The notes under the pieces are model-generated. The model did not search any database. It worked only from the letters and a program-made list of their open reading frames with translations, and was not told the origin of the DNA. Both the position numbers and the translations under genes were made by a program. From Patescibacteria group bacterium UBA4787 (GTDB lineage Bacteria; Patescibacteriota; Patescibacteriia; UBA2591; UBA4787), in the NCBI GenBank assembly GCA_002402995.1, contig DHGX01000004.1:85186-149185 (forward strand): a stretch of DNA of 64,000 nt. Direction: 5' to 3'. Position 1 is the stretch's first letter, and every line of letters starts with the position of its first letter. Positions 8,582-62,788 of the stretch are shown in pieces.

Positions 8582-8610
8582 TCGTAAAATTACGCAATTT
8601 ATCCATTAAT

Positions 8611-8694
8611 TATACCCGCTTCGCGGGTGAAATTGGGGCGCTCGGAGTCAAATCAAAAGAAGACTTTTGTCTGACATCCTCGCTACCAATTATA
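8611..8694 (+). repeat. family B dispersed intergenic repeat, copy B1 (GAGTATAAT-box element)
   Basis: Matches the consensus TATACTCGCTTTGCTTGTGAAATTGGGGCACTCGGAGTCAAATCAAAAGTAAAACTTTTGTTTGATCTCTTCGCTACCAATTATA. It lies in the divergent region between e2b2 and the AMMECR1 gene. Confidence 0.8.
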
Positions 8695-13296: not shown

Positions 13297-15060
13297 TTAT
13301 GTTTTTTTAAGGAATTTTAATAGTCTTTCCATCGGCCACGCGTTAATTACATCTTTGGCTTCTACCCAGCCGCGGCGCGCAGTCATAACGCCATAACGCA
13401 TATTTTTCAGTTCTACTCTCGCATGGGCGTCCGTATTAATAACATTTTTTAAACCTATTTTCTTGACCAATTTTAAATTAACATCATTTAAGTCCAGGCG
13501 ATTCCAGTAAGCGTTTAATTCCAGAATTTTATTTAATTTTTTGGCTTCCAGTATAACTTTTTCTATATCAACATTATAGGGCATGCGCTTATTAATGATT
13601 CGGCCGGTTGGGTGAGCCAAAATTTTAACATAAGGATTTCTAATAGCCTTAATAATGCGTTCGGTCATAATTTCCGTGGGTTGTTTAAAGCCAGTGTGGA
13701 TTGCCGCAATCACAACATCGAGTTTTTTTAAAATTTCATCCGGCAGATCAAGTTGGCCATCGGCTTTGATATCAACCTCCATACCCTTGAGAATTCTGAA
13801 ATTTCTTAATTTTTTATTTAAGCGGTCTATTTTTTTAATTTGCTCCAAGACCCTTTTTGGATTTAACCCGTGGGTTACGCCGACTGAAGGTGTATGATCG
13901 GTAATGGCCAGATATTTATAGCCCATAACTTTTTGGGCGTAAGCAACAAGCTCTTCGATTGAATCGGCGCCATCTGATGCCTCGCTATGGCACTGCAAGT
14001 CGCCCTTAATGTCTTTGTCTTCGATAAGACGCGGCAATTTATTTTGTTTGGCTAATTCTATCTCTCCTTCGTCTTCCCTGATTTCCGGCGGTATGTAGGA
14101 TAAACCGACTGATTTAAAAACATTAATCTCTTCGGCACCGGTCAAAAATTTAAATTTGCCTGATTTTTCTTTTTTGAAAACTCCGTATTCATTGATTTTA
14201 AGATTCCGCGCCTGCCCCAGTTTTCTGATATGAATATTGTGCGCTTTTGAGCCGGTAAAATAATTCATAGCCGCGCCAAAACTTTCCGGTTTAATTACAC
14301 GAAGGTCAGCCTCAATCCCCTGTTTTAGAACAACATTAGCTTTCGTGGGGCCGCTTGCTTTAACTTGTTTAATCACCGATAAATGGACGAAACTATTAAT
14401 GGTTTTCTCGGGATGAGCGGAAATAGCTAAAAGATCGAGATCGCCTATGGTTTCTCTTCTTCGACGGATACTGCCGCAGATTTCTACCCTTTTTACGCCG
14501 GGAATATTTTTAATTTTTTCGGCAAGCTCTTCGGCAATCGGCAAAGCGATACCCAGAGGCAGCCGTTCGCTGAATTTCTTATATTGTTCGACACCTTGTA
14601 GAATATTGATTTCGCTCTTCTCGCCCCACCCTTTAAACTTTAAAAGTCTGTGAGATTTAATCAATTTGATTAAATCGTTGATGGAATTAATGTGGAGTTT
14701 GCTATTTAAAAATTTAACTTTTTTAGGGCCCAGTCCTTCGATTGATAATAGTTCCAAGACGCCTATAGGCACCTTTTTTTCTAAGTCGTCGATTTCTTTG
14801 GAATGCGCTGAAGTTATAAGTTCTTCGATTTTTTCCTTTAAGCCAGCGCCGATGCCGGGAATTTCCGTTAATTTATTTTGTTTATAGAGCTCATTAATAT
14901 CTTCTGGAAGAGATTCAATTGTTTGGGCGGCCCGACGATAAGCATTAACTCGAAATTGATTCTGTCCCAAGACTTCTAGAATGTCGGCCACTTTATAAAA
15001 TTTTTGCGCAATCTCCCTGTTATCCATTGTTTTGATTTTTCTCTTTAATGTAAATTGCAT
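13297..15060 (-). CDS. polX: DNA polymerase/3'-5' exonuclease PolX (Pol beta-like domain plus PHP domain)
   Basis: 587 aa. The N-terminal pol X helix-hairpin-helix/nucleotidyltransferase region (GIGAGLKEKI, GSIRRRRETIGDLDLL) is followed by a C-terminal PHP histidinol-phosphatase domain (HSEASDG). Confidence 0.85.
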   Translation of the reverse strand: MQFTLKRKIKTMDNREIAQKFYKVADILEVLGQNQFRVNAYRRAAQTIESLPEDINELYKQNKLTEIPGIGAGLKEKIEELITSAHSKEIDDLEKKVPIGVLELLSIEGLGPKKVKFLNSKLHINSINDLIKLIKSHRLLKFKGWGEKSEINILQGVEQYKKFSERLPLGIALPIAEELAEKIKNIPGVKRVEICGSIRRRRETIGDLDLLAISAHPEKTINSFVHLSVIKQVKASGPTKANVVLKQGIEADLRVIKPESFGAAMNYFTGSKAHNIHIRKLGQARNLKINEYGVFKKEKSGKFKFLTGAEEINVFKSVGLSYIPPEIREDEGEIELAKQNKLPRLIEDKDIKGDLQCHSEASDGADSIEELVAYAQKVMGYKYLAITDHTPSVGVTHGLNPKRVLEQIKKIDRLNKKLRNFRILKGMEVDIKADGQLDLPDEILKKLDVVIAAIHTGFKQPTEIMTERIIKAIRNPYVKILAHPTGRIINKRMPYNVDIEKVILEAKKLNKILELNAYWNRLDLNDVNLKLVKKIGLKNVINTDAHARVELKNMRYGVMTARRGWVEAKDVINAWPMERLLKFLKKT

Positions 15061-15886
15061 CTTTAAATCTTAAGTCAAGATATTCTAGCTTTGATCTGTC
15101 TTCAATATATTTAGTTAAGCTCTCTTGTAATTTATAAATTTGATAATTAAAGGTTGAATCACCCAACATATATATTTGCCAATCTTCGTTCGTTGTTATC
15201 TTAATTTGCAAAATATTATTGAGATAATCGATTTCGGCAATTTTAATTTTTACTTCCGGACGAACAGATAAACTAGCAATGTCGTTAACCAATTGAGAGA
15301 TTAAAGAAAAAAAGTTTTTATTCAGCGGTAAAACGGTCTGATCAAGAATAATCGGCAAAGACGACGGTTGTGGCTTTTGATAAATGGGCACAAATCCGAT
15401 TACCGGATCTAAATAATATGAGAAATCTCCATTGGGCTGGAATAAGGCTATCGGCATGATTTCCCAATATTTAATGATTAATTGGTGGGGAAAGTATCTG
15501 ATAATTTTTATTTTTTGGAACGCTTGTTGTTTTAAAACTTCTTTTTCTATCTTATCCTCTTTAATAGTCAAAAGACTATTTTTGCCAAAGAAGAATGAAT
15601 CTTTTTGGACGCGCAGTTTTTCTATTAAATCAAACAAGTCCTTTTCGTCCGCGGGAACAGTGTTTTGGTCAGATTTTATGCTCTTGATGGAAATTTCTCG
15701 AACGTCAAAATAATTATTTTTAATCAACAGCCAAATGAATCCCCCTATTAATATTATAAAAATAATCGAGAAAATTATTAAAACTTTATTTATTTTTCTT
15801 TTTTTTGATTGCCGAGCAACCATCATTTCGTGCCTAACTGCAGATTGATGTTCCGGCGAATTGTTTTTTTTCTTGAAAAGAGGCAT
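15020..15886 (-). CDS. cell division protein FtsQ/DivIB-like (single N-terminal TM, POTRA-like)
   Basis: 288 aa with a basic N-terminus, one transmembrane helix and an extracytoplasmic domain. Its start codon sits inside the target duplication of MITE copy A1. Confidence 0.45.
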   Translation of the reverse strand: MPLFKKKNNSPEHQSAVRHEMMVARQSKKRKINKVLIIFSIIFIILIGGFIWLLIKNNYFDVREISIKSIKSDQNTVPADEKDLFDLIEKLRVQKDSFFFGKNSLLTIKEDKIEKEVLKQQAFQKIKIIRYFPHQLIIKYWEIMPIALFQPNGDFSYYLDPVIGFVPIYQKPQPSSLPIILDQTVLPLNKNFFSLISQLVNDIASLSVRPEVKIKIAEIDYLNNILQIKITTNEDWQIYMLGDSTFNYQIYKLQESLTKYIEDRSKLEYLDLRFKDAIYIKEKNQNNG

Positions 15887-15887
15887 A

Positions 15888-16078
15888 CCAGGTAGTAGAG
15901 ATTCGATGCTTCTCGGGGCGCGATTTATATTAAGGAATGCGATAGAAGCAAAGAATAGTTATTTTATTAATGATGAGACCAAGTAGTGTAACGAAGCGAA
16001 AAGCTTGAAACTTAATACTCCGATGCCTTGGTCGGAGTCCAGACTCTTCGACATCGGGATTGAATTTTCACTACCTGG
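15888..16078 (+). mobile_element. family A MITE, copy A1 (long form, 191 bp)
   Basis: TIRs CCAGGTAGTAGAGATTCGATGCTTC ... ATTGAATTTTCACTACCTGG flanked by CATA at 15884-87 and 16079-82. It is ~90% identical to copy A2 at 44188-44378. Confidence 0.85.
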
Positions 16079-16511
16079 CATATTTTTGTTTAGTAATATT
16101 CGGCTGCTGATTATAGAATGGATGAATTATCTTACGAAGCGCCCTTTTGCCTCCCTGTTTCTCTAAAAATTTCAATCCATTTTTAATCAATAGAAGGTTG
16201 TCTTCATCGTTTTCGTTTGCTAAGCCCACAATCGGAATTTTTAAATTATGAGCTATGAGATTGGCCGTGGTTAAGACAACTCTTATGGAAGTAAAAGATC
16301 CGGGACCATCTATCACAATGATTCCTTCAAGCGCCAAAACATTTTCATTTTCTGCTTTAAGCAAGTTTTCTATTAAATTAAGCAGGTCGCGGCGATAAAT
16401 ATTGCCTTTTGCCGAATATAATTTACCGACAATCTCCGTGTCGTTTTTATCTTTATTTTTAATAAAGGCCAAGTAGATGTCGCTTTTTACCGCGTTAATA
16501 AACAGAATCAT
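16071..16511 (-). CDS. tsaB: tRNA threonylcarbamoyladenosine biosynthesis protein TsaB (YeaZ-like)
   Basis: The core reads MILFINAVKSD...VIDGPGSFTSIRV, carrying the TsaB GPGSFTG-like motif. The ORF-track start at 16595 would read into repeat B2, so the start is placed at 16511. Confidence 0.7.
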   Translation of the reverse strand: MILFINAVKSDIYLAFIKNKDKNDTEIVGKLYSAKGNIYRRDLLNLIENLLKAENENVLALEGIIVIDGPGSFTSIRVVLTTANLIAHNLKIPIVGLANENDEDNLLLIKNGLKFLEKQGGKRALRKIIHPFYNQQPNITKQKYAR

Positions 16512-16536
16512 TGATTGCAAAAATTGATAAATTAGA

Positions 16537-16684
16537 GTATAATTGGCAGTGAGGATATCAAATAAAAGTCTGCTTTTGATTTGACTCCGACTCACCTCGC
16601 TGACCCGCTACGCCAACGCGTTAGCGTGGCGAGAGCTCCGGCGAAGTGTAGCGCCCCAATTTCACGGAGCGAAGCGAGTATAAT
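16537..16684 (-). repeat. family B repeat, copy B2 (long form with nested GC-rich palindromic insert)
   Basis: Reverse orientation. It contains the insert CGCTACGCCAACGCGTTAGCGTGGCGAGAGCTCCGGCGAAG and ends with GCGAGTATAAT about 40 nt upstream of the ATG at 16725. Confidence 0.8.
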
Positions 16685-26226: not shown

Positions 26227-26237
26227 AATTATCACTT

Positions 26238-26525
26238 ATGAAAAAAGATACACACCCAACTTATTATTCGGGGGCTAAAATTATTTGTGCCTGCGGAAAT
26301 ACTATTAATAGCGGTTCTACCGTTGAAGAAATGCATGTGGAAATTTGTTCCAAGTGCCATCCTTTTTATACTGGCAAACAAAAATTAATCGATACCGGCG
26401 GTCGAATTGAAAGATTCAGAAAATTAATTGAAAAAAAATCCGCGAAGAAACAGATAAAATCGAAAACGATAGCCGCAAAACTCACTACAAAAAAAGGTAA
26501 AAACAAAACTAATAAAGGACATTAG
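26238..26525 (+). CDS. rpmE: 50S ribosomal protein L31
   Basis: [10 protein letters not shown]... with the C..C...C..C zinc-ribbon arrangement of L31. Confidence 0.9.
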
Positions 26526-36178: not shown

Positions 36179-36184
36179 ACTATG

Positions 36185-36349
36185 TTGGGTAGTGAAAATT
36201 CAATCCCGACGTCGAAGGGTCGGGATTTCGACCAAGGCGTCGGAGTAGTAAGTTTCAAGTTTTCCACTTCGATCTACTATCTGGTTCTATTATTAATAAA
36301 ATAACTATTCTTTGCTTCTATCGCATTCCTTGATATAAATCGCATACCT
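36185..36349 (-). mobile_element. family A MITE, copy A3 (long form, reverse orientation, gene-proximal TIR partly deleted)
   Basis: TATG lies at 36181-84. The copy is ~85% identical to the reverse complement of A1/A2 and ends 3 nt before the ATG at 36353. Confidence 0.7.
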
Positions 36350-36352
36350 AAT

Positions 36353-37438
36353 ATGTTTATTTCTCCTCAAAATAAAATTATAAGATTTTTCATCATTGCC
36401 ACCATTCTTCTGGCTATCTTTTTCATGTTCTCTTTTGCGTCGTTATTCTATAAGACCACCATCAATATTGTTTCTAAACAAAAAGACATTGATGCTAATC
36501 TCGCCGCCACTCTTAATACAACGATAGAAATAAATACGGTTTCCGCTAAAAACACATTCTCTCCTACTGCTCTTGTAAGCATGGAAGATTTTGCCACAGG
36601 AGAAGCAGTTATTACCAATCGTTCAAAACAAAATCAAATTTTGATAGTCAACACCAGACTCCTCTCGTCCAGCGGGCTCCTTTTCCGTCTAACCAACAAA
36701 GCAACTATACCGTCTGGCGAGAAAAGAAGAGTAGCTATCCGTGCGGATAAAACAGGACAAGATTATGAAATCGGACCGACAAAATTTACCATTCCGGGAC
36801 TATCGCCTATTTTACAAACTCAGGTTTTCGCTGAAAGCGACAAATCAACAACTGGCGGGCTTAAAAAAGCAGGTGTTGTTACTAAAAAAGATATTGACAA
36901 CGCCGTTGAATCTTTAAAAAATGAATTAATTCAAAGTTCTATAAAAGAACTGGAAAAGAAATATGCGGATCAAGATAATTTTAAAATCGCGATTAAACCT
37001 GAAGTAATTAAGGAGAATGTCAGCGCCAAAGCAAACGAAGAAAAAACGGAATTTACCGCCGAAGTTATCTTAAAAATTATCGCTGCGCTAGTAAATGAAG
37101 AAAGGTTATTAAAATCTGCACAGGAAAAACTTGAATCTAATATTCCAGTCGGTTATCAATTATATAATGCAAATAGGTCTAGCTTGGCATACCGATTCAA
37201 GGACTATGACCCCAAAAACCAGACTGCTACTTTTGAAATTTACCTGAACGGACGATATATTGTTTCGGAAAAAAATGACCAGTTTTCAAAATCAAACTTT
37301 TTAAACCTTTCTCGTACTCAAATCAAAGACCGTTTGCAGAAAATTGAAGATATTGGTAGTTTTAAAATTTCTATGTTTCCGCCATTATTCGCTAATTCCC
37401 CTAAAAACGAAAATCGTATAAATATCAAAATAAAATGA
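36353..37438 (+). CDS. hypothetical membrane-anchored protein
   Basis: 361 aa with an N-terminal transmembrane helix. Its stop overlaps the next ATG (ATGA). Confidence 0.5.
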   Translation: MFISPQNKIIRFFIIATILLAIFFMFSFASLFYKTTINIVSKQKDIDANLAATLNTTIEINTVSAKNTFSPTALVSMEDFATGEAVITNRSKQNQILIVNTRLLSSSGLLFRLTNKATIPSGEKRRVAIRADKTGQDYEIGPTKFTIPGLSPILQTQVFAESDKSTTGGLKKAGVVTKKDIDNAVESLKNELIQSSIKELEKKYADQDNFKIAIKPEVIKENVSAKANEEKTEFTAEVILKIIAALVNEERLLKSAQEKLESNIPVGYQLYNANRSSLAYRFKDYDPKNQTATFEIYLNGRYIVSEKNDQFSKSNFLNLSRTQIKDRLQKIEDIGSFKISMFPPLFANSPKNENRINIKIK

Positions 37439-42494: not shown

Positions 42495-42526
42495 AGGCTT
42501 GATTTATATATTGAATTATACTCGCT

Positions 42527-42601
42527 TTGCTTGTGAAATTTGGACGTTCAGAGTCAAGTCAAAAGTAAAACTTTTGTTTGAACTTCTCGCTACCAACTAT
42601 A
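42527..42601 (+). repeat. family B repeat, copy B4 (short form)
   Basis: Its TATAAT box lies about 20 nt upstream of the start of the 41763-42494 gene. Confidence 0.8.
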
Positions 42602-42650: not shown

Positions 42651-44186
42651 TTATTGTTCTATATATTTTACGCTTATTTTAGCTTCAAAAATTTGCTTCA
42701 GTAGCTTGGGATCGGCTCTATCCTTGCTATCTTTCATCGCTTGACCAATTAAAAATTGCAAAACGTTGATTCTCCCGTTTTGATATGCTTTTACCATTTC
42801 AGCGTTTTTATCAATTACTTTTTGAACGATATTTTCTATTTCTGTAGTATTGTCAACTCTTTTAAAGTCTTCGGATTGTATTATTTTATCAACATCTGCT
42901 CCAGTTATAAACATTTCTTCCAAAAGCTTTTGAGCCATAGTGCCGGAAACCTTATTTTCATAAATTAAAATAATAAATTCGGCGAAATTTTCAGGAGTAA
43001 TTTTAAGATTTTCAAAATTTTCATGGTGCGTTTGAAAAAGATAAAACAATCGATTAATAATCCAAGACGACACCAGCTTTAATAGCTTTGATCGGTGTTT
43101 CGTCCAAATTTCTTGTTCGCTATCTTCTACGGTTTCTAAAGATATAAGCCATGCTTTGAGTTCAGAAACAACATGCTCCGTGAAATCGGCCATAATTTTT
43201 TGGCTGGTCAGAATCTTCGCCTCTTCTTTGGATAAATCATAAGAGCGCTCGAATCTTTCGCGACGAATACAGGGCAATTCAGGCAAAGAAGATCTTAAAT
43301 TATTAATATTGATGAAATTGTCCACCGTCGAATCAAAAAATGGAATATCCGGTTCCGGAAAATAACGATAATCCGTTATCCCCTCTTTAATCCTTTGAAC
43401 TATAATTTTCTCTTTGTTCTCGTCCCAACCGACCGTAATTTTTCCCTGACGCCTTACAATTTCTCCCCCGGCAATATATTCTTCGTATTGGCGATTAGCT
43501 TCAAAACCTAAAGCCCTTTCCACGGCCTTAAAGGAATTTAAATTTTTAATTTCTGTGATTGGTGTTTTAATCTCTCGCTCGTCTTTATCAAAACTAATAT
43601 TGACGTTGACGTCGCAACGCATTTGTCCTTTTTCCATATCGGCATCGGAAATATTCAAATATCGGGCAATCAACTGCAATTCTTGCAAAAATATCTTTGC
43701 CTCTTCGGGAGATTTTAGATCTGGCTCAGTAACAATTTCGACTAAAGGAATACCCGAACGATTAAAATCAATTAAAGTATTATCGCCCGAGTGCGATAAT
43801 TTAGCAGTATCTTCTTCAAGGTGAATCCTGTTTAATCTTATTTTTCTGCGCTCATTTGATAAATCAATGTCTAGATAACCGCCCGCAATAATCGGATGAT
43901 CATATTGACTGATTTGATAACCCTTCGGCAAATCTGGATAAAAATAATTTTTGCGGTCAAATTTAAATTTTTCGGCCACGCGACTATTTAAAGACAAGCC
44001 CAACGAAATCGCTTGTTCAAGAGCTAGACGATTTACTACTGGCAATGCCCCTGGCTGACCAGTACAAACCGGACAAATATTGCTATTAGGATGACTCAAA
44101 TCGAGTTTATTCTCACAAAAACAAAACATTTTTGTTTTTGTTTTAAGCTCTAAATGGATTTCTAGCCCTATAATAAATTTAAACAT
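42651..44186 (-). CDS. gatB: Asp-tRNA(Asn)/Glu-tRNA(Gln) amidotransferase subunit B
   Basis: 511 aa with the GatB N-terminus (IGLEIHLEL, CPVCTGQPGALP) and a C-terminal YqeY-like domain. Confidence 0.9.
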   Translation of the reverse strand: MFKFIIGLEIHLELKTKTKMFCFCENKLDLSHPNSNICPVCTGQPGALPVVNRLALEQAISLGLSLNSRVAEKFKFDRKNYFYPDLPKGYQISQYDHPIIAGGYLDIDLSNERRKIRLNRIHLEEDTAKLSHSGDNTLIDFNRSGIPLVEIVTEPDLKSPEEAKIFLQELQLIARYLNISDADMEKGQMRCDVNVNISFDKDEREIKTPITEIKNLNSFKAVERALGFEANRQYEEYIAGGEIVRRQGKITVGWDENKEKIIVQRIKEGITDYRYFPEPDIPFFDSTVDNFININNLRSSLPELPCIRRERFERSYDLSKEEAKILTSQKIMADFTEHVVSELKAWLISLETVEDSEQEIWTKHRSKLLKLVSSWIINRLFYLFQTHHENFENLKITPENFAEFIILIYENKVSGTMAQKLLEEMFITGADVDKIIQSEDFKRVDNTTEIENIVQKVIDKNAEMVKAYQNGRINVLQFLIGQAMKDSKDRADPKLLKQIFEAKISVKYIEQ

Positions 44187-44187
44187 A

Positions 44188-44378
44188 CCATGTAGTAGAG
44201 ATTCGATGCTTCTCGGGGTGCGATTTATATTAAGGAATGCGATAGAAGCAAAGAATAGTTATTTTATTAATAATAGAACCAGATAGTAGACCGAAGCGGA
44301 AAGCTTGAAACTTACTACTCCGACGCCTTGGTCGGAGTCCCGACCCTTCGACATCGGGATTGAATTTTCACTACCTGA
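44188..44378 (+). mobile_element. family A MITE, copy A2 (long form)
   Basis: TIRs with CATA at 44184-87 and 44379-82. The gatB start codon is the CAT of the left duplication. Confidence 0.85.
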
Positions 44379-44385
44379 CATATTT

Positions 44386-45765
44386 TTAACAAGAATGCTT
44401 ACTACTTAAAACTATGACGATGGTTTTAAGTAAAATTTTAAAATCCAACCAAATAGACCATTGGCGAACATAGAAAAGATCTAACTTAACCTCCTCTTCA
44501 AAGGATAAACTTGATCGACCTGAAACTTGAGATAATCCTGTCACACCAGGTTTAATGAATAATAATTCTTTTTGATTATAATCATATCGTGAGACTTCAT
44601 CGGGTTGATGTGGCCGAGGTCCGACCAAACTCATTTGTCCCTTTAAAACATTAAATAATTGCGGCAATTCATCGATACTATAACGTCTAATAAATTTGCC
44701 GATTTTTGTCACGCGTGGATCGTTCTTCATTTTGAATAAAGGACCATCTTTTCTCTCGTTTTGCGCCATTAGGTCTTTTTTAAGTTGTTCGGCGTTTTTT
44801 ACCATAGAACGAAATTTGTATAATCTGAAAGATTTTCCCCGTTGACCGACTCGCGTTAAACCGACAAAAATTGACCCAGATGAATCAATTTTAATAATAA
44901 GGCCTAATAAAATAAAAAATGGAGACAGAGCAATCAATCCGAAAAAAGAAAAAATAATATCTAAAATTCTTTTGACTACCCTTCCCCACCCATCTAAAGC
45001 CGTTCGTTTTACTTCGATATACGGCCTGCCCATCATAGTTTCTACGGCTAGATTACTGGAAAGCGCGCCGAAGAGATCGGCGGCATACTTAAAATTTATT
45101 TGGTGTTCCTTGCAAAAAGCAATAAGACGCAAAACATCCGATCGAGATATATTAGAATCGCCCTGAATAATCTCGTCGAAACTTGAAACGCGACTAGACC
45201 AATTATTAATCAGGTCATCTACGGAAGCGGCTTGGCCGATAATATTATATCCATGTCCGAGATTTTTACGACAAGAGTTGATTAATTCTTCCACCTCCTT
45301 TCCTTGTCCTAAAATCAAGACTGGCTCTAAGCCAATGCCTTGTTTAAAAGATATTAACTGGATTAGATGAATTAAAAATCGTCCGATACTCAAAAAAACA
45401 AAAGAAGCTATCCATCCCGCTAAAATAATAAACCGAGAAGTAAAATATTCTCTTTGAAAAAACAAAAATAGAACAATTAACATAGTGCCCATAGAACAGC
45501 CAATAAAAATTTGGCTAATTTCTTGCGTAAAATGCCGTCTGTTTTTTATGCTATATAAGCCCAATAAAACAAAAATTCCTATCCAAATTAAAGCAATTAA
45601 AACGATCTTAAAAACATAATCGTTATAAGGGATCTGTGTGAATATCGGTAAAACTTCTTTAAATAACTTAAAACGCAAAAAATAAATAGATATGCCAGCC
45701 AAAACAAGCATAATAAAATCTAATGGCAATAAAGCGGTTAAAAATATAAGTCGAGATTTGCGCAT
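44386..45765 (-). CDS. undecaprenyl-phosphate sugar phosphotransferase (bacterial sugar transferase, WbaP/PglC-like C-terminal domain)
   Basis: 459 aa with N-terminal transmembrane helices and the C-terminal motif KFRSM...DELPQLFNVLKGQMSLVGPRP. Confidence 0.85.
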   Translation of the reverse strand: MRKSRLIFLTALLPLDFIMLVLAGISIYFLRFKLFKEVLPIFTQIPYNDYVFKIVLIALIWIGIFVLLGLYSIKNRRHFTQEISQIFIGCSMGTMLIVLFLFFQREYFTSRFIILAGWIASFVFLSIGRFLIHLIQLISFKQGIGLEPVLILGQGKEVEELINSCRKNLGHGYNIIGQAASVDDLINNWSSRVSSFDEIIQGDSNISRSDVLRLIAFCKEHQINFKYAADLFGALSSNLAVETMMGRPYIEVKRTALDGWGRVVKRILDIIFSFFGLIALSPFFILLGLIIKIDSSGSIFVGLTRVGQRGKSFRLYKFRSMVKNAEQLKKDLMAQNERKDGPLFKMKNDPRVTKIGKFIRRYSIDELPQLFNVLKGQMSLVGPRPHQPDEVSRYDYNQKELLFIKPGVTGLSQVSGRSSLSFEEEVKLDLFYVRQWSIWLDFKILLKTIVIVLSSKHSC

Positions 45766-45787
45766 AAAAATAGAATATAAAACAAAT

Positions 45788-45932
45788 TATACTCGCTTTG
45801 CTCCTAAAGTTGGGGCGCCCCGCTTCGCCATAGCTCTCGCCACGCTAACGCGTTGGCGTAGCGGGTCAGCGAGGCGAGTCGGAGTCAAATCAAAAGTAAA
45901 ACTTTTGTTTGAGCTCCTCACTACCAATTATA
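45788..45932 (+). repeat. family B repeat, copy B5 (long form with GC-rich insert)
   Basis: Its TATAAT box lies about 22 nt upstream of the sugar transferase start. Confidence 0.8.
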
Positions 45933-51074: not shown

Positions 51075-51635
51075 CTAACGTTTTTTCCATTGCGGAGCCC
51101 GGCGCGCTCTTTTAAGGCCAGGTTTCTTTCTTTCTTTGATGCGGGCATCGCGGGTTAAAAAGCCAAGAGATTTTAAAGAATCTCTCAAATTATTATCTAT
51201 AGCAATCAAGCATTTAGCTATACCCAACCGAATGGCTTCGCTCTGCGCGCTAATTCCTCCTCCTTTTACGCGAATAATAAATTTATAATTCTTATATTCT
51301 TTAAATAAATTTAAAACATTTTCGATGTTTTTTTGCCAGGAAAAATATGGAAAATATTTTTTATAATCCTTTTTATTAACTATTATTTCGCCTAATCCAT
51401 GCCCCCAAACCTGAATTTGAGCAATAGATGTTTTTCTTTTACCGGTTGCTTGACCAACTAAAACAGGGGCGCCGGTTTTTTTAGCTTTAACAATCTCTAT
51501 TTTAGGCATTACCCTCTTCTTTAATTCAAAAGTTATTGGAATTTCTTTTTCCGGTTTTGCGACAATTTGCTTTTTTGTCTTTTTAACAGAATTTTTAGGT
51601 TTAACAATTTTTTTTGTTGTTATATTTTTGGGCAT
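51075..51635 (-). CDS. rpsI: 30S ribosomal protein S9 (with ~55 aa lysine-rich N-terminal extension)
   Basis: The C-terminus KKPGLKRARRAPQWKKR and the S9 core are present. The N-terminal K-rich tail is unusual. Confidence 0.85.
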   Translation of the reverse strand: MPKNITTKKIVKPKNSVKKTKKQIVAKPEKEIPITFELKKRVMPKIEIVKAKKTGAPVLVGQATGKRKTSIAQIQVWGHGLGEIIVNKKDYKKYFPYFSWQKNIENVLNLFKEYKNYKFIIRVKGGGISAQSEAIRLGIAKCLIAIDNNLRDSLKSLGFLTRDARIKERKKPGLKRARRAPQWKKR

Positions 51636-51640
51636 AATTT

Positions 51641-54815: not shown

Positions 54816-54975
54816 AATATACCGATAAAAACCATTAAATTAACAAAGAAAGTAAAATAATTATAATCGCTTCGCTCTTGAAATTTACTCGCTCAGGAAT
54901 CAGGTAAAAACCATTTTACCTATTCCCTCGCTCAAAAATTATACTCTAAAACAAAAAAAATGTCAATCAAAATAA

Positions 54976-55200
54976 CTAATATCGGAAAGTTATTCTACCC
55001 TTAGACAAATCATACGGACTCATTTCTATTTTAACTCGATCGCCCATGGCTATTCTAATCCGATTTAGTCTTAATCTTCCAGAAAGATAGGCCAAAATTT
55101 CTTGGCCATTATCTAATTTAACCTTAAAGGTCGTCGAAGGCAAAAGTTCTTCAATGGTTCCGTCTGATTCTAAAAATTCTTCTTTTTTGGCGTTAAACAT
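54976..55200 (-). CDS. infA: translation initiation factor IF-1
   Basis: S1-like OB fold. Two adjacent ATGs lie at 55198-55203, and repeat B6 abuts the start. Confidence 0.9.
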
Positions 55201-55285
55201 CATACTCGCTTTGCTTGTGAAATTGGGGCACTCGGAGTCAAATCAAAAGTAAAACTTTTGTTTGATCTCTTCGCTACCAATTATA
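55201..55285 (+). repeat. family B repeat, copy B6 (short form)
   Basis: It directly abuts the infA start codon. Confidence 0.8.
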
Positions 55286-55394: not shown

Positions 55395-56354
55395 CTAAAA
55401 ACCCACATATTCAATTTCTTCGTTCAACTCTATATTAAACTTGTCTTTGACTTTTTGTTTAATCAGACCGATTAATTTATAAGTGTCATTCGCCGTAGCA
55501 TGGTTGGCATTAATTATAAAATTCGCGTGTTTTTCGCTTATTTTTGCCCCGCCAATTCCTTGTTCCTTTAATCCTGTTTTTTCAATAAGCCAACCCGCCG
55601 GGATGGTGCCAATTTTTAAAAACCTCAAAAAATCGTCATGATATTCTGCCTCTATGGGCGCAACCATATCCGTGCTTAGGTTAATTAATTTCGCATTGCG
55701 AAATACGCAACCCGCGCTAGGTTCGAGCGGATTGTTCTTGCGCAATGCCAGATTCTTGTTCATCTCTTCGGCAATTGTCTTTTGATCTTGTTTCGCTAAT
55801 ATTATTTCCCCGCTTAAAATAATATAATTTTTATTTATCTTAAATAAACTGTATCGATAAGAAAATTCGCATTTGTCGGCGTCGAAAAAGAGTGTTTTAT
55901 TATTTTCAACATCAAAAACTTTAACACGCGGAGAATTATTCTCTATAGTTTTGCCAAAAGCTCCGGCGTTGCCGCATATTGCCCCGCCGATTGTTCCGGG
56001 AATGCCAGTCGCCCACTCCAGGCCGCTCAAAGAATTTTTAAAAGCAAAATCAACCAAAGAGCTTAAATCGACGCTTGCGTCAAATTTTAAAATTCCATTT
56101 TCGTATAAAATAGAATTTCCTTTAAATTTAATAACCAATCCCCTAAATCCTTGATCTGATATTAAAATGTTGCTGCCGTCGCCTAAAATAAAAAACGGTA
56201 TATTATTATCCCTCGCGTAAATCAAAGAAGCGCAGAGATCATCTGTGTTCCTAGGTTCATAAAAAAAATCGGCTGGGCCGCCTATTCTGAAGGTCGTATG
56301 GGGGCCCAACGCAACATTATTTTTTAAGTATTCTGCTTTAAACATCTTATTCAT
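55395..56354 (-). CDS. murB: UDP-N-acetylenolpyruvoylglucosamine reductase
   Basis: 319 aa with an FAD-binding N-terminus (HTTFRIGGPADFF, ILGDGSNIL) and the MurB C-terminal domain. Confidence 0.85.
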   Translation of the reverse strand: MNKMFKAEYLKNNVALGPHTTFRIGGPADFFYEPRNTDDLCASLIYARDNNIPFFILGDGSNILISDQGFRGLVIKFKGNSILYENGILKFDASVDLSSLVDFAFKNSLSGLEWATGIPGTIGGAICGNAGAFGKTIENNSPRVKVFDVENNKTLFFDADKCEFSYRYSLFKINKNYIILSGEIILAKQDQKTIAEEMNKNLALRKNNPLEPSAGCVFRNAKLINLSTDMVAPIEAEYHDDFLRFLKIGTIPAGWLIEKTGLKEQGIGGAKISEKHANFIINANHATANDTYKLIGLIKQKVKDKFNIELNEEIEYVGF

Positions 56355-56438
56355 TATACTCGCTTTGCGAGTGAAATTAGGGCACTCGGAGTCAAATCAA
56401 AAGAAGACTTTTGTTTGATCTCTTCGCTACTAATTATA
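56355..56438 (+). repeat. family B repeat, copy B7 (short form)
   Basis: It directly abuts the murB start codon (…GCGAGTATAATGAAT). Confidence 0.8.
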
Positions 56439-57488: not shown

Positions 57489-57511
57489 TTGTGGGATAAA
57501 TATAAATTATG

Positions 57512-57652
57512 CCAGGTAGTGAAAATTCGATAGTGCTTTTTGCTTCGGTTCACTATTTGGTTTCATTATTAATAAAATAAATATTCTTTGCTTCCAGTTT
57601 ATTCTTTCATATAATCGCACTTTAAGAGAAGCATCGAATTTCTACTACCTGG
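57512..57652 (-). mobile_element. family A MITE, copy A4 (short form, reverse orientation)
   Basis: TATG lies at 57508-11 and 57653-56. The cysS ATG is inside the right-hand duplication. Confidence 0.85.
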
Positions 57653-57653
57653 T

Positions 57654-59042
57654 ATGTTGCAGTTTTTTAACGACTTATCCAAAAAAAAGGAGATTTTTAC
57701 GCCAATAAAAAAAAGAGGCGTTGGTTTGTATACTTGCGGACCAACGGTTTATAATTATGTTCATATCGGTAATTTAAGAACATTTCTTTTAAATGATATC
57801 TTGAGAAGGACATTGGAGTATAACGGTTATTCTGTAAAAAATATAATTAATATAACCGACGTCGGACACTTAACTTCTGACGCTGATACAGGCGAAGACA
57901 AAATGGATAAAATGTCCAAGGCGGAAGGACGCGCTCCGGAAGAAATCGCGCAATTTTTTACCGACGCCTTTTTGGCCGACATTAAAGATTTGAATATTAT
58001 CCATCCCAATGTGCTTTGTAAAGCCACGGAACATATTCCGCAGCAAATAAAATTAATTAAAAAACTGGAAAAGAACGGCTTCACCTACCAAACCTCTGAA
58101 GCCGTATATTTTGACACGGCTAAATTTCCCGAATACGGCAAAATGGCCGGTTTTAGCGAGAAAAAAACCCAGGAAGCCCAGGCCAGAGTTGAAGAAGATC
58201 CGGAAAAGAAACATCTGGCTGATTTTACCTTATGGTTTAAGCGCGTTGGCCGCCACGCCCATCATATTATGCACTGGGATAGCCCCTGGGGCGACGGCTG
58301 GCCGGGGTGGCACATTGAGTGCAGCGCCATGTCAATGTATTATTTAGGCAAAACCTTTGATATTCACGGTGGCGGCATTGATCTTCTGCCGGTTCATCAT
58401 ATTAATGAAATCGCCCAATCCGAAGCGGCCACAGGCCAGAAATTCGTTAACTACTGGGTCCATGGGGAATTTATTCTAATGGACAGTAAAAAGATGGCCA
58501 GATCAGAGGGCGGATTTATTATGCTGCAGAATCTTATTGAAAAAGGCTTTAATCCCCTTGCCTTTCGCTATCTCTGCCTTAACACCCATTATCGCACGCA
58601 ATTAAACTTCTCTTTTCAGGCCTTGGAAGCGGCCCAGAATGCTTTGAATAAATTGTATCAAGCTATTAACGACTTCCCTAAACCGCGCGGCCGCGCTCCT
58701 GAATTTGAAGAACGCTTTTTAACGGCCATAAACGATGATTTAAATATGCCATCAGCTTTAGCCGTGGTTTGGGATTTACTTAAAACAAAAAATATTAAAC
58801 CCAGCGCCAAACTAAACACTTTATTCAAGTTTGATAAAGTTTTGGGACTTAAATTTGAAGAAACCTATAACAATTCCCAGGACACGCCGGAAGAAATAAA
58901 ACTTTTAGCCCAAGACAGAGAAGAGGCCAGGCAGGAAAAAAACTGGAAGAGAGCCGATGAAATCAGAAAAAAAATCCAAGAAGCCGGCTATCTGGTTGAA
59001 GACACGCCAACCGGACCTGATATAAAAAAAATAATATTGTAG
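57654..59042 (+). CDS. cysS: cysteinyl-tRNA synthetase
   Basis: 462 aa with HIGN (HIGH-like) and KMSKS-region motifs. The N-terminus aligns with canonical CysS. Confidence 0.9.
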   Translation: MLQFFNDLSKKKEIFTPIKKRGVGLYTCGPTVYNYVHIGNLRTFLLNDILRRTLEYNGYSVKNIINITDVGHLTSDADTGEDKMDKMSKAEGRAPEEIAQFFTDAFLADIKDLNIIHPNVLCKATEHIPQQIKLIKKLEKNGFTYQTSEAVYFDTAKFPEYGKMAGFSEKKTQEAQARVEEDPEKKHLADFTLWFKRVGRHAHHIMHWDSPWGDGWPGWHIECSAMSMYYLGKTFDIHGGGIDLLPVHHINEIAQSEAATGQKFVNYWVHGEFILMDSKKMARSEGGFIMLQNLIEKGFNPLAFRYLCLNTHYRTQLNFSFQALEAAQNALNKLYQAINDFPKPRGRAPEFEERFLTAINDDLNMPSALAVVWDLLKTKNIKPSAKLNTLFKFDKVLGLKFEETYNNSQDTPEEIKLLAQDREEARQEKNWKRADEIRKKIQEAGYLVEDTPTGPDIKKIIL

Positions 59043-62093: not shown

Positions 62094-62121
62094 ATTATAC
62101 CTAATTAAAATAAAAAATCAA
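62094..62121 (-). promoter_or_regulatory. promoter of the tRNA-Thr/Tyr/Thr-rpmG-tRNA-Trp operon
   Basis: TTGATT -16 nt- TATAAT on the minus strand, about 35 nt upstream of the tRNA-Thr(GGT) 5' end. Confidence 0.55.
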
Positions 62122-62122
62122 G

Positions 62123-62264
62123 CCAGGTAGTAGAAATTCGATGCTTCTTAAAAAGTGCGCTTATATGAAGAAATGCGGCAAGAGCAAAAAATATTTATTT
62201 ATTAATTACTAGAACCAGTCGGTTAAAGAGAAGCAAAAAGCACTATCGAATTTTCACTACCTGG
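62123..62264 (+). mobile_element. family A MITE, copy A5 (short form)
   Basis: TIRs flanked by CAAG at 62119-22 and 62265-68. It lies immediately upstream of the tRNA operon promoter. Confidence 0.85.
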
Positions 62265-62279
62265 CAAGCCTCCTAAATT

Positions 62280-62510
62280 TTAATTACTGTTCGATGGGCG
62301 CTGACGACGATTTTTAAACCGCAATTTTAATGAATTTATATTACGTTTAAGATAATTTAAAATTAATTGTCTTTTTATCCAATAACGCTTCTCTTGCGTA
62401 AGCTGCTTTAAATCAAGAGAAGCTGCCAGCGACAACTTGGCAGATAATAATATAATAATTCTTGCCAATAAAGCGAGAATAAAAACAACTAAAATTATAT
62501 TTATTATCAT
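62280..62510 (-). CDS. hypothetical small membrane protein sandwiched between two MITE copies
   Basis: 76 aa with an N-terminal hydrophobic helix and a basic tail. Its start codon is the CAT of the A6 target duplication. Confidence 0.3.
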   Translation of the reverse strand: MIINIILVVFILALLARIIILLSAKLSLAASLDLKQLTQEKRYWIKRQLILNYLKRNINSLKLRFKNRRQRPSNSN

Positions 62511-62511
62511 A

Positions 62512-62649
62512 CCAGGTAGTAGAAATTCGGTGCTTCTTAAAGTGCGATTATTAAGAAACGCGCTGGAAGCAAAGAATTAGTTATTTTATTAATGATGGGA
62601 CCAAGCAATGGAACGAAGCAAAAAGCACTATCGAATTTTCACTACCTGG
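62512..62649 (+). mobile_element. family A MITE, copy A6 (short form)
   Basis: TIRs with CATA at 62508-11 and 62650-53. Confidence 0.85.
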
Positions 62650-62788
62650 CATAATATAGATTTAATTAACCTTACAAATTCATTTGGCATATATTATAAA
62701 ATTATTCCTCAAAATCATTTATTGTCAAGCAAGCGAGTGAAATAAAAATTTTATTTTCATTTCCGAGCGAGCGCAGACAACACAGGGT

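Follow-up and report, generated by a model that had tools for sequence, protein, structure and literature searches.

A 64,000-nucleotide stretch of contig DHGX01000004.1 from Patescibacteria group bacterium UBA4787, which as a whole is called the window below, contains six copies of a short inverted-repeat element, five of which sit exactly on the start codon of a gene. What kind of element lands on start codons, by what means does it move, and how does the gene behind it continue to be expressed? We consider it probable, at roughly two chances in three, that the six repeats are non-autonomous members, of the miniature inverted-repeat transposable element (MITE) type, of a family spread across the Patescibacteria (candidate phyla radiation, CPR), that the family moves by means of a small GIY-YIG nuclease encoded by its full-length members, and that start-codon insertion serves the expression of that nuclease. 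In the initial annotation of this DNA, the repeats had been read as Correia-like elements selected to supply promoters and leaders to essential genes. The CPR-wide spread of the family and its minimal GIY-YIG parent, both of which had been missed there, are in our view the more important result.

Copies in the window, empty sites and mobility

The window copies are named c1 to c6 (Table 1); in each, the gene-proximal arm is called A and the distal arm B, and the duplicated flanks are the target-site duplication (TSD). All six were recovered where they had first been annotated, a BLAST search of each copy against the window returned these six places only, and a 25-nt end motif gave five matches at ≤3 mismatches in the window and none in 100 shuffles. 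Alignment bore out the division into short (138-142 bp) and long (191 bp) forms, the latter with an extra 51-nt GC-rich module beside one end. As is generally expected of MITEs, the copies are small, multi-copy (six in 64 kb), non-coding (no Pfam-bearing open reading frame, ORF, was found inside any of the six), bounded by 20-bp inverted arms and flanked by a TSD with a fixed length of 4 bp. Checked base by base, the flanks read TATG (CATA on the other strand) at five copies and CAAG at one, exactly as first described. The terminal inverted repeats (TIRs) had also been seen correctly, with the exception of their length, which had been given as 26 bp and is 20 bp across the family, with an asymmetry at positions 10-11 that is described below. 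One copy, c2, has decayed: its B arm is mutated to TTGGGTAGTGAAAATTCAAT (36185-36204) and about 24 nt, including most of the A arm, are deleted, with both TATG flanks still present; over 157 nt it shares 95.5% identity with c3.

At c1, c2, c3, c4 and c6, the downstream ORF has the duplicated ATG as its first start codon, and the proposal that these start codons are authentic was upheld. Counted from the duplicated ATG, the Pfam domain of GatB starts at residue 5 and that of CysS at residue 15, and in the orthologue of a related genome (JBBTUI01, introduced below) conservation of CysS sets in at codon 1, with none in the DNA upstream. Every copy points its A end at the downstream gene and lies between co-directional genes; this common orientation, already recorded for the start-codon copies, extends to c5, whose A end faces a tRNA-Thr/Tyr/Thr/Trp operon (62052 to 61460, minus strand) at a distance of 70 nt, an operon that had not been noted before. 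The original stop-to-start spacers at the insertion sites were only about 4-20 nt, which implies that the host genes were operon members; upstream of c3, the stop of the sugar-transferase gene at 44386 lies about 4 nt from the original ATG.

Two observations concern individual copies. A TsaB-like ORF upstream of c1, at 16071-16595(-), stops at a TAG within the B arm (..TAT GCC AGG TAG; 16071-16078) and would, without the insertion, extend about 17 codons into the next gene, so that c1 appears to have replaced the C-terminus of this ORF. Just past the window end, a seventh, partial copy is located between scpA and scpB at the scpB start (L001 16618-16637, approximately window coordinate 64271), where it reads CATA|CTAGGTAGTAGAAATTCGAT; its distal arm is no longer recognisable.

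Direct evidence of mobility comes from the metagenome-assembled genome (MAG) JBBTUI01 (Patescibacteria, isolate H41-bin211_1), which is syntenic with the window at 80-90% nucleotide identity. Three orthologous sites differ between the two genomes precisely by the element plus one copy of TATG: the cysS site is filled in the window and empty in JBBTUI01, and the sites at rpsI and at an rpmE-like gene are empty in the window and filled in JBBTUI01 (Table 1). The nearest CysS protein outside the same species is only 60% identical, and the empty sites, whose absence had been named in the initial annotation as a ground for rejecting a mobile element, came instead from DNA synteny with JBBTUI01. At other loci the flanks are duplications of other sequence (CTTG, TAAG, CGTA, ATAA, TGGA, CCCA, TGAA), and this variety of identical 4-mers shows that the four base pairs originate in the target and form no part of the element itself; tandem elements have one TATG in common. 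Together, these data prove that the elements insert precisely with a 4-bp duplication and are mobile, and show that gains or losses of copies postdate the divergence of the window organism from JBBTUI01. A copy in JBBTUI01 at a different host gene (L066 1765-1844) is 98.75% identical over 80 nt to part of c6 and its flank (window 62508-62587), compared with 80-90% for housekeeping sequence, which hints at recent exchange or at strong constraint on the element.

Family spread and a GIY-YIG gene between the arms

A scan of one genome per species (GTDB), using as query the 20-nt core common to both ends, yielded 70 loci, about 60 of which are in some 34 Patescibacteria MAGs, distributed over Paceibacteria, Saccharibacteria, Liptonbacteria, Doudnabacteria, Gottesmanbacteria, Berkelbacteria and other classes. 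About ten single-arm matches in non-CPR genomes of unrelated phyla were treated as chance, as they are consistent with our own estimate of about 17 chance matches in 596 Gb. At the CPR loci, the motif occurs in inverted pairs 60-433 bp apart, with interiors (about 20-400 bp) that are unrelated between lineages, and element sizes fall into two groups, 60-200 bp and 300-450 bp. The searchable literature contained no description of the arm sequences, of CPR MITEs or of a GIY-YIG element with inverted ends and duplications, and this repeat family of the Patescibacteria is therefore apparently undescribed, as had been supposed for the window copies alone.

Each arm is 20 bp long, CCAGGTAGTGAAAATTCGAT in the distal (B) and CCAGGTAGTAGAAATTCGAT in the gene-proximal (A) position, and both follow the formula CCAGGTAGT[GA/AG]AAATTCGAT. 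Across 132 unique elements, the similarity between arms stops sharply at nucleotide 20 and the asymmetry at positions 10-11 is invariant, with GA in the B arm (AGTGAAAAT) and AG in the A arm (AGTAGAAAT). The arms also co-vary, position 20 being changed in both arms in 54 elements and in one alone in 5. If paired, as single-stranded DNA or as RNA, the two arms would form a stem of 20 bp in which a G-T (G-U) wobble and an A-C mismatch stand side by side in every element.

An ORF of about 88 amino acids with a Pfam GIY-YIG domain (E ~1e-18) is found inside the longest arm pairs (313-433 bp). PF01541 covers residues 3-72 of the 88, making this a single-domain protein, and in the full-length form of about 313 bp this sole ORF fills the space between the arms. 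The predicted structure, with a predicted local distance difference test score (pLDDT) of 81, consists of a bare GIY-YIG core plus C-terminal helices, and the nearest solved relatives of this fold are UPF0213 (E 1e-5) and the structure-specific nuclease SLX1. The match to TIGR01453 is weak (21.7 bits vs a cut-off of 56), and tblastn against plasmids gave weak YazA-type matches only, at 33-42% identity. Close relatives make up at least 894 clusters, of which the top 120 are 70-100% identical, and the clade itself is tight, with 9 representatives at E <1e-30 (50%-identity library) within 2,886 small relatives at E <1e-10.

A metagenome scan with protein alignment, in which 80 loci were kept by a ranking that favoured ORFs with an N-terminal extension, showed every one of the 80 genes of this tight clade to have a B arm on one side and an A arm on the other (0-4 mismatches); the elements measure 304-431 bp, and most have TATG..TATG flanks. 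The arms and the GIY-YIG gene are thus shown to be exclusively associated. No arm pair more than 450 bp apart was present in the 907 kb of collected sequence, and there is consequently no member in it large enough for a conventional (DDE) transposase (ORF ≥250 amino acids). The search for a transposase with matching ends, suggested in the initial annotation, accordingly led to a GIY-YIG nuclease inside the same arms and to no DDE-size element. In JBBTUI01, the closest relative of the window organism, both kinds of element are found side by side in one genome: one GIY-YIG copy (L006) and about 14 loci of non-coding copies of the window subfamily, with the same arms.

The nuclease ORF is in many cases continuous with the host start codon. 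Among 73 unique long elements, the frame is open from a flanking start codon in 46, with the stop at the inner edge of the A arm, and in 46 of the 66 long elements with an ORF of ≥80 codons, the host ATG follows the stop after 20-21 nt. About 70 of the 120 nearest clusters are annotated as beginning MPGSEN..., which is the flank ATG plus the translated B arm, and two clusters have no internal methionine, so that only the flanking ATG can start them. Gene callers thereby annotate the nuclease with a 10-residue extension that is read through the repeat. GIY-YIG proteins have also been described in non-intron insertions within CPR rRNA genes, outside the homing context (PMC11270868), and these insertions may belong to the same family of GIY-YIG elements with inverted ends.

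Start-codon targeting, a candidate mechanism and its rivals

Among 120 unique sites, 60 have TATG/TATG flanks and 7 have them in reverse orientation, and most others contain ATG; C occupies the two positions following TATG at about 45% of sites, the G+C content of these genomes being about 35%. The preferred target is therefore TATG, often TATGCC, and TATG(CC) is shown to be the usual start-codon context in these genomes, which lack Shine-Dalgarno sequences. The 55 elements found by arm pattern alone were examined for an adjoining ORF of ≥60 codons. Such an ORF start adjoined the A arm in 34 elements, the B arm in 5, both in 1 and neither in 15, compared with 28.5% of all TATG sites in the same DNA that open an ORF of this length. 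About three quarters of copies are exactly on a start codon, and in about nine in ten of these it is the A arm that faces the gene. The GIY-YIG coding parent and the unrelated MITE interiors of other lineages show the same bias in orientation. Targets without ATG also occur in the family: TGGA, TGAA and, at a metagenome locus (L148 ~1625), a GIY-YIG element with a CCCA..CCCA duplication, apparently at the 3' CCA end of a tRNA-like sequence.

We propose that the GIY-YIG nuclease is the element's own mobility enzyme. This assignment follows the published behaviour of the Ssn nucleases, which, on binding a hairpin, cleave single-stranded DNA immediately upstream of it (Chenal et al. 2025, PMC11893778). 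The nuclease would act on a hairpin or cruciform of the two arms, with its invariant G-T and A-C mismatches, and would cut at the junction of arm and TATG; the window copies would depend for mobilisation in trans on a full-length copy located elsewhere in the genome. The element would benefit from insertion at a start codon, as the upstream duplicate ATG, together with the native initiation context, would start the nuclease ORF (M-PGSENS-...), and this ORF would end 20-21 nt before the downstream duplicate ATG, at which the host gene would be re-initiated. At MITE copies, the host gene would still be transcribed by read-through from the upstream co-directional gene. Its start codon in the read-through RNA would then form the foot of a 20-24-bp stem, which would have to be melted by ribosomes at work on a short ORF begun at the upstream ATG, or else be cleared by a double-strand RNase, and an internal promoter may add to expression in some copies. 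Both the nuclease-driven transposition and this route of continued host-gene translation are inferred.

Several points weigh against this proposal. To our knowledge, GIY-YIG enzymes hydrolyse DNA, and we know of no strand-transfer or ligation activity among them; the route from a purely hydrolytic enzyme to rejoined DNA with a 4-bp duplication is thus unexplained. No GIY-YIG gene was found in the 64-kb window or in the approximately 10 kb past its end, and a trans-acting copy has to be assumed. The number of coding elements in frame with the host start codon is inflated in the metagenome set by the ranking bias toward N-terminal extension, and in the set found through the TIRs only 1 of 5 long elements is in frame from the flank ATG; the 70 of 120 clusters from the protein search are the fairer estimate. 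Insertions inside genes would be lost, and such selection by itself accounts for some of the link with start codons; TATG opens 37 of the 64 genes in the window, and of its other occurrences there only 44 are intergenic and 327 are inside genes. The effect size across loci and the 34:5 orientation bias still need explaining after this loss is considered. Recent transposition of a coding element was also sought through the identical protein P0120, and no evidence of it emerged: in all 10 contigs examined, from many samples, the element is at one and the same locus, which indicates that full-length copies can be stable and supplies no case of identical copies at several sites. Finally, the element resembles the Ssn/NTS system; membership (CDD cd10448) is unproven, and the SRM consensus HGTCWY..YYVSBRH..WNVSBRG..RNCYNB had no match on any element, even when relaxed.

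With these points weighed, the best explanation overall, and one that we hold to be probable, is that the window copies are non-autonomous relatives of a minimal GIY-YIG element. We put forward more tentatively, and at somewhat less than even odds, the stronger reading that the ~313-bp unit of inverted ends and GIY-YIG gene is a new class of autonomous prokaryotic transposon, the smallest and the first with a bare GIY-YIG nuclease as its only enzyme, which lands on start codons to borrow host initiation and returns the ribosome about 20 nt later, and of which the window copies are non-coding offspring.

A function at the RNA level, compatible with this explanation, was also considered, in which the copies are kept mainly as regulatory hairpins in operons, serving for transcript processing, for attenuation or, by burying the start codon, for repression of translation, and in which mobility would be no more than the means of their arrival. 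The hairpins themselves, which the initial annotation had anticipated, are strongly predicted: read-through RNA of the window copies folds into a long stem that includes the UAUG (dG -35 to -55 kcal/mol, z -4.5 to -6.6; for c4, -36.8 kcal/mol and z -4.5), all copies are between co-directional and formerly closely spaced genes, and the long form adds a terminator-like hairpin in the sense orientation. Co-variation of the arms would fit an RNA stem, as would the analogy with Correia elements, which are cut by RNase III in transcripts. Yet the G-T/A-C asymmetry is equal on both strands and does not single out the RNA strand, no copy matched an Rfam family at either gathering or E-value thresholds, and the interiors are unrelated between lineages. 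As c2 has lost one arm with no sign of harm, and as site polymorphism between relatives argues against a conserved regulatory role, we regard this as rather unlikely to be what the repeats are for.

The reading of the initial annotation, a mobile promoter/leader cassette whose A end carries an outward TTGCTT-16-TATAAT that drives the downstream gene, with copies kept as suppliers of promoter and 5' untranslated region to essential genes, is in our judgement unlikely. The hexamer pair had been reported for each copy; it is present in c1-c5 (as TATAAT, TATAAA or TATAAG, 38-45 nt from the ATG) and lacking in c6, its -35 element matches the TTGACA consensus at only 3 of 6 positions, and a promoter scan of the window copies did not call it. 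The TTTGCT and AATCGCAC blocks are conserved across 13 aligned subfamily members, yet the spacing is not, since 6 members have a TATAAT-like hexamer at 16 nt and 7, including c6, have AATAAT at 14 nt; -10-like hexamers, moreover, arise easily in AT-rich DNA. An internal promoter would help after insertion, the original spacers being too short to hold one, and all six copies do point their A end at the downstream gene. This orientation is, however, common to the coding parent, which has no room for a promoter, and to unrelated MITE interiors, and is therefore a property of the family that no promoter drives. Native promoters also persist beside the elements: a TTGTCA-17-TAAAAT promoter is upstream of the insertion point at the rpmE-like site, and the tRNA operon has its own TTGATT-16-TATAAT (62121-62094(-)) outside the element, between c5 and tRNA-Thr, whose -35 box overlaps the CAAG/CTTG duplication (62119-62122), so that c5 was inserted at a -35 box. 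Some copies may contain an internal promoter, which neither defines nor orients the family.

The second half of the cassette idea, a leader with no Shine-Dalgarno sequence, is accurate as a description and is in no way special to these genes, as almost none of the 64 genes in the window has one. Upstream regions in the window are A/T-rich, with T at position -1 in 58% of genes. Some window genes have a TGnTATAAT box 6-8 nt before the ATG (e.g. 37863), and boxes so placed suggest leaderless or near-leaderless mRNAs.

A more conventional possibility is that a transposase not seen here, for example a DDE enzyme that makes 4-bp duplications, recognises the arms, and that the GIY-YIG gene is a passenger or selfish cargo in some copies. 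Inverted ends with a duplication of fixed length are a hallmark of DDE transposition, no GIY-YIG gene was found in the window, and GIY-YIG enzymes are not known to join DNA. All the same, the size distribution of the elements ends at 450 bp in the collected sequence, all 80 clade genes are inside arms with the ORF filling the inter-arm space exactly, which would be unexpected for cargo, and the arms co-vary around a conserved internal mismatch, as for hairpin recognition, leaving this possibility with a low probability. That the repeats are instead an ancient, immobile leader of orthologous genes, as the single GIY-YIG copy fixed at one site across many samples might suggest, is refuted by the precise empty sites in both directions between the window and JBBTUI01, and is further contradicted by host genes and duplicated 4-mers that vary between copies and by tandem insertions that share a TATG.

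Related systems, significance and further features

The closest parallel in mode of action is the Ssn/NTS system. The Neisseria SsnA and its relatives are single-domain GIY-YIG proteins of about 94 amino acids. They bind a repeat in hairpin form, cleave single-stranded DNA a few nucleotides upstream and also accept a stem whose two halves are separate strands. Their genes are flanked by their own repeats (NTS/SRM), an architecture whose likeness to insertion sequences was noted by the authors, with mobility of the NTS only hypothesised (PMC11893778). In both systems, the only protein is a single-domain GIY-YIG protein of about 90 amino acids, and its gene is flanked by an inverted repeat that is also dispersed in the genome, mostly between genes, here as dozens of non-coding copies. 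The acceptance by Ssn of stem halves supplied in trans would fit a stem made, as here, from two distant arms. The systems differ in that the arms described here pair across the whole element (60-430 bp), whereas the Ssn repeats each form their own hairpin of about 28 nt, and in that the 4-bp target duplication and empty sites demonstrate mobility here; insertion on start codons and an ORF in frame with the host ATG likewise set this family apart.

The hairpin-based IS200/IS605 elements and the REP/RAYT system (REPIN) are likewise very small, with recognition of single-stranded DNA hairpins and a short target tetranucleotide adjoining the element, and they have non-autonomous hairpin derivatives between genes that are served by a single-copy enzyme gene. 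Those systems, however, employ a Y1 HUH transposase and sub-terminal hairpins and make no target duplication, whereas the present family encodes nothing but a GIY-YIG protein, ends in true inverted repeats and duplicates 4 bp of its target. GIY-YIG homing genes (I-TevI, T4 Seg) are similarly selfish, have a GIY-YIG nuclease as sole product and reside between or at the edges of genes with little harm to the host, but their enzymes contain a DNA-binding domain in addition, and the genes spread into a single cognate allele through break repair and are without inverted ends, target duplication or non-coding derivatives; here a bare catalytic domain of about 88 amino acids is associated with many different host genes. 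The family shares with DDE insertion sequences and their MITEs the terminal inverted repeats, the short duplication of fixed length and the non-autonomous derivatives that have only the ends in common. It differs in that no DDE-size member is present in the data and that the form which looks autonomous, at about 313 bp, is much shorter than the smallest insertion sequences known (about 700 bp).

Correia elements, to which the window copies had first been compared, are about 100-155 bp, are often co-transcribed with their neighbours as long hairpins and can carry promoter-like ends. They are small, non-coding elements with terminal inverted repeats and short and long forms, as here, and the comparison stands as an analogy only: the end sequence is apparently unrelated to the 26-bp Correia inverted repeat, and Correia elements duplicate TA where the present family duplicates 4 bp, usually TATG. 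We know of no start-codon targeting by Correia elements and of no protein-coding parent for them. Overall, the elements work most like the Ssn/NTS and hairpin-based IS200/IS605-REP systems, look like a classical inverted-repeat transposon with its MITEs, and are like Correia elements only loosely.

Should the GIY-YIG protein prove to be the mobility enzyme, it would define a new catalytic class of bacterial transposons, set a new lower size limit of about 313 bp for an autonomous element, and give a concrete selfish-element origin to the recently found Ssn-type nucleases, which the original paper only suggested. Start-codon targeting with in-frame capture of the host ATG would be an unusual expression route for a parasite that spares an essential gene, and would offer a natural test bed for translation start and re-start in CPR bacteria that lack Shine-Dalgarno sequences. 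A sequence-specific nuclease of 88 amino acids guided by a hairpin, if such it is, would merit interest as a molecular tool. In genomic practice, these repeats mislead gene callers and break CPR metagenome assemblies; two independent contigs of the same organism from other sequencing runs (L165 and L166) end inside the c6 B arm with their last 24 nt.

Table 1. Repeat copies, orthologous insertion sites and a second repeated motif in the window (window coordinates unless a JBBTUI01 contig is named)
Feature	Position	Strand	Flanks (TSD)	Context
c1, long form, 191 bp	15888-16078	(-)	CATA, 15884-15887 and 16079-16082	A arm 15888-15907, B arm 16059-16078; A arm adjoins ATG (15886-15884) of gene 15020-15886(-)
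c2, long form, decayed	36185-36351	(+)	TATG, 36181-36184 and 36352-36355	Right flank holds ATG of gene 36353-37438(+)
c3, long form, 191 bp	44188-44378	(-)	CATA, 44184-44187 and 44379-44382	A arm adjoins gatB start (gene 42651-44186(-))
c4, short form, 141 bp	57512-57652	(+)	TATG, 57508-57511 and 57653-57656	Between corA stop (57488) and cysS ATG (57654)
c5, short form, 142 bp	62123-62264	(-)	CAAG, 62119-62122 and 62265-62268	Not on a start codon
c6, short form, 138 bp	62512-62649	(-)	CATA, 62508-62511 and 62650-62653	A arm adjoins ATG of 76-aa ORF 62280-62510(-)
cysS site				Window filled (c4); JBBTUI01 empty, single TATG (...GAACTTATGTTGTGG...)
rpsI start, gene 51075-51635(-)	51633-51636	(-)		Window empty, TATG(CC), AAAAATTATGCCCAAAAAT
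rpsI site in JBBTUI01, 143-bp element	L034 7735-7877		TATG..TATG	Filled
rpmE-like 95-aa gene start (26238-26525)	26237-26240	(+)		Window empty, TATG
rpmE-like site in JBBTUI01, 139-bp element	L063 449-587			Filled
Motif GCRAAGCGAGTATAAT	42515-42530	(-)		
Motif GCRAAGCGAGTATAAT	45786-45801	(-)		
Motif GCRAAGCGAGTATAAT	56353-56368	(-)		
Motif GCRAAGCGAGTATAAT	55199-55214	(-)		
Motif GCRAAGCGAGTATAAT	54860-54875	(-)		
Motif GCRAAGCGAGTATAAT	16669-16684	(+)		
Motif GCRAAGCGAGTATAAT	8609-8624	(-)		

Further features of the window are noted here in their own right. The 76-aa ORF between c5 and c6 has no Pfam match and is a putative gene. A conserved short ORF within the MITEs was considered, as the frame from the upstream ATG is open for 22-43 codons in five of the six window copies; it was judged non-significant and set aside, given the common ancestry of the copies and the stop codons that most frames meet in the AT-rich centre in any case. 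Finally, a second motif, GCRAAGCGAGTATAAT, has 8 matches at ≤3 mismatches in the window, compared with about 1 expected (Table 1). It is often preceded by GAGTGCCC-AATTTCAC and is found just upstream of genes (infA, rpmJ-like, murB, sugar transferase), and has the appearance of a strong promoter common to several genes or of a second family of small repeats.

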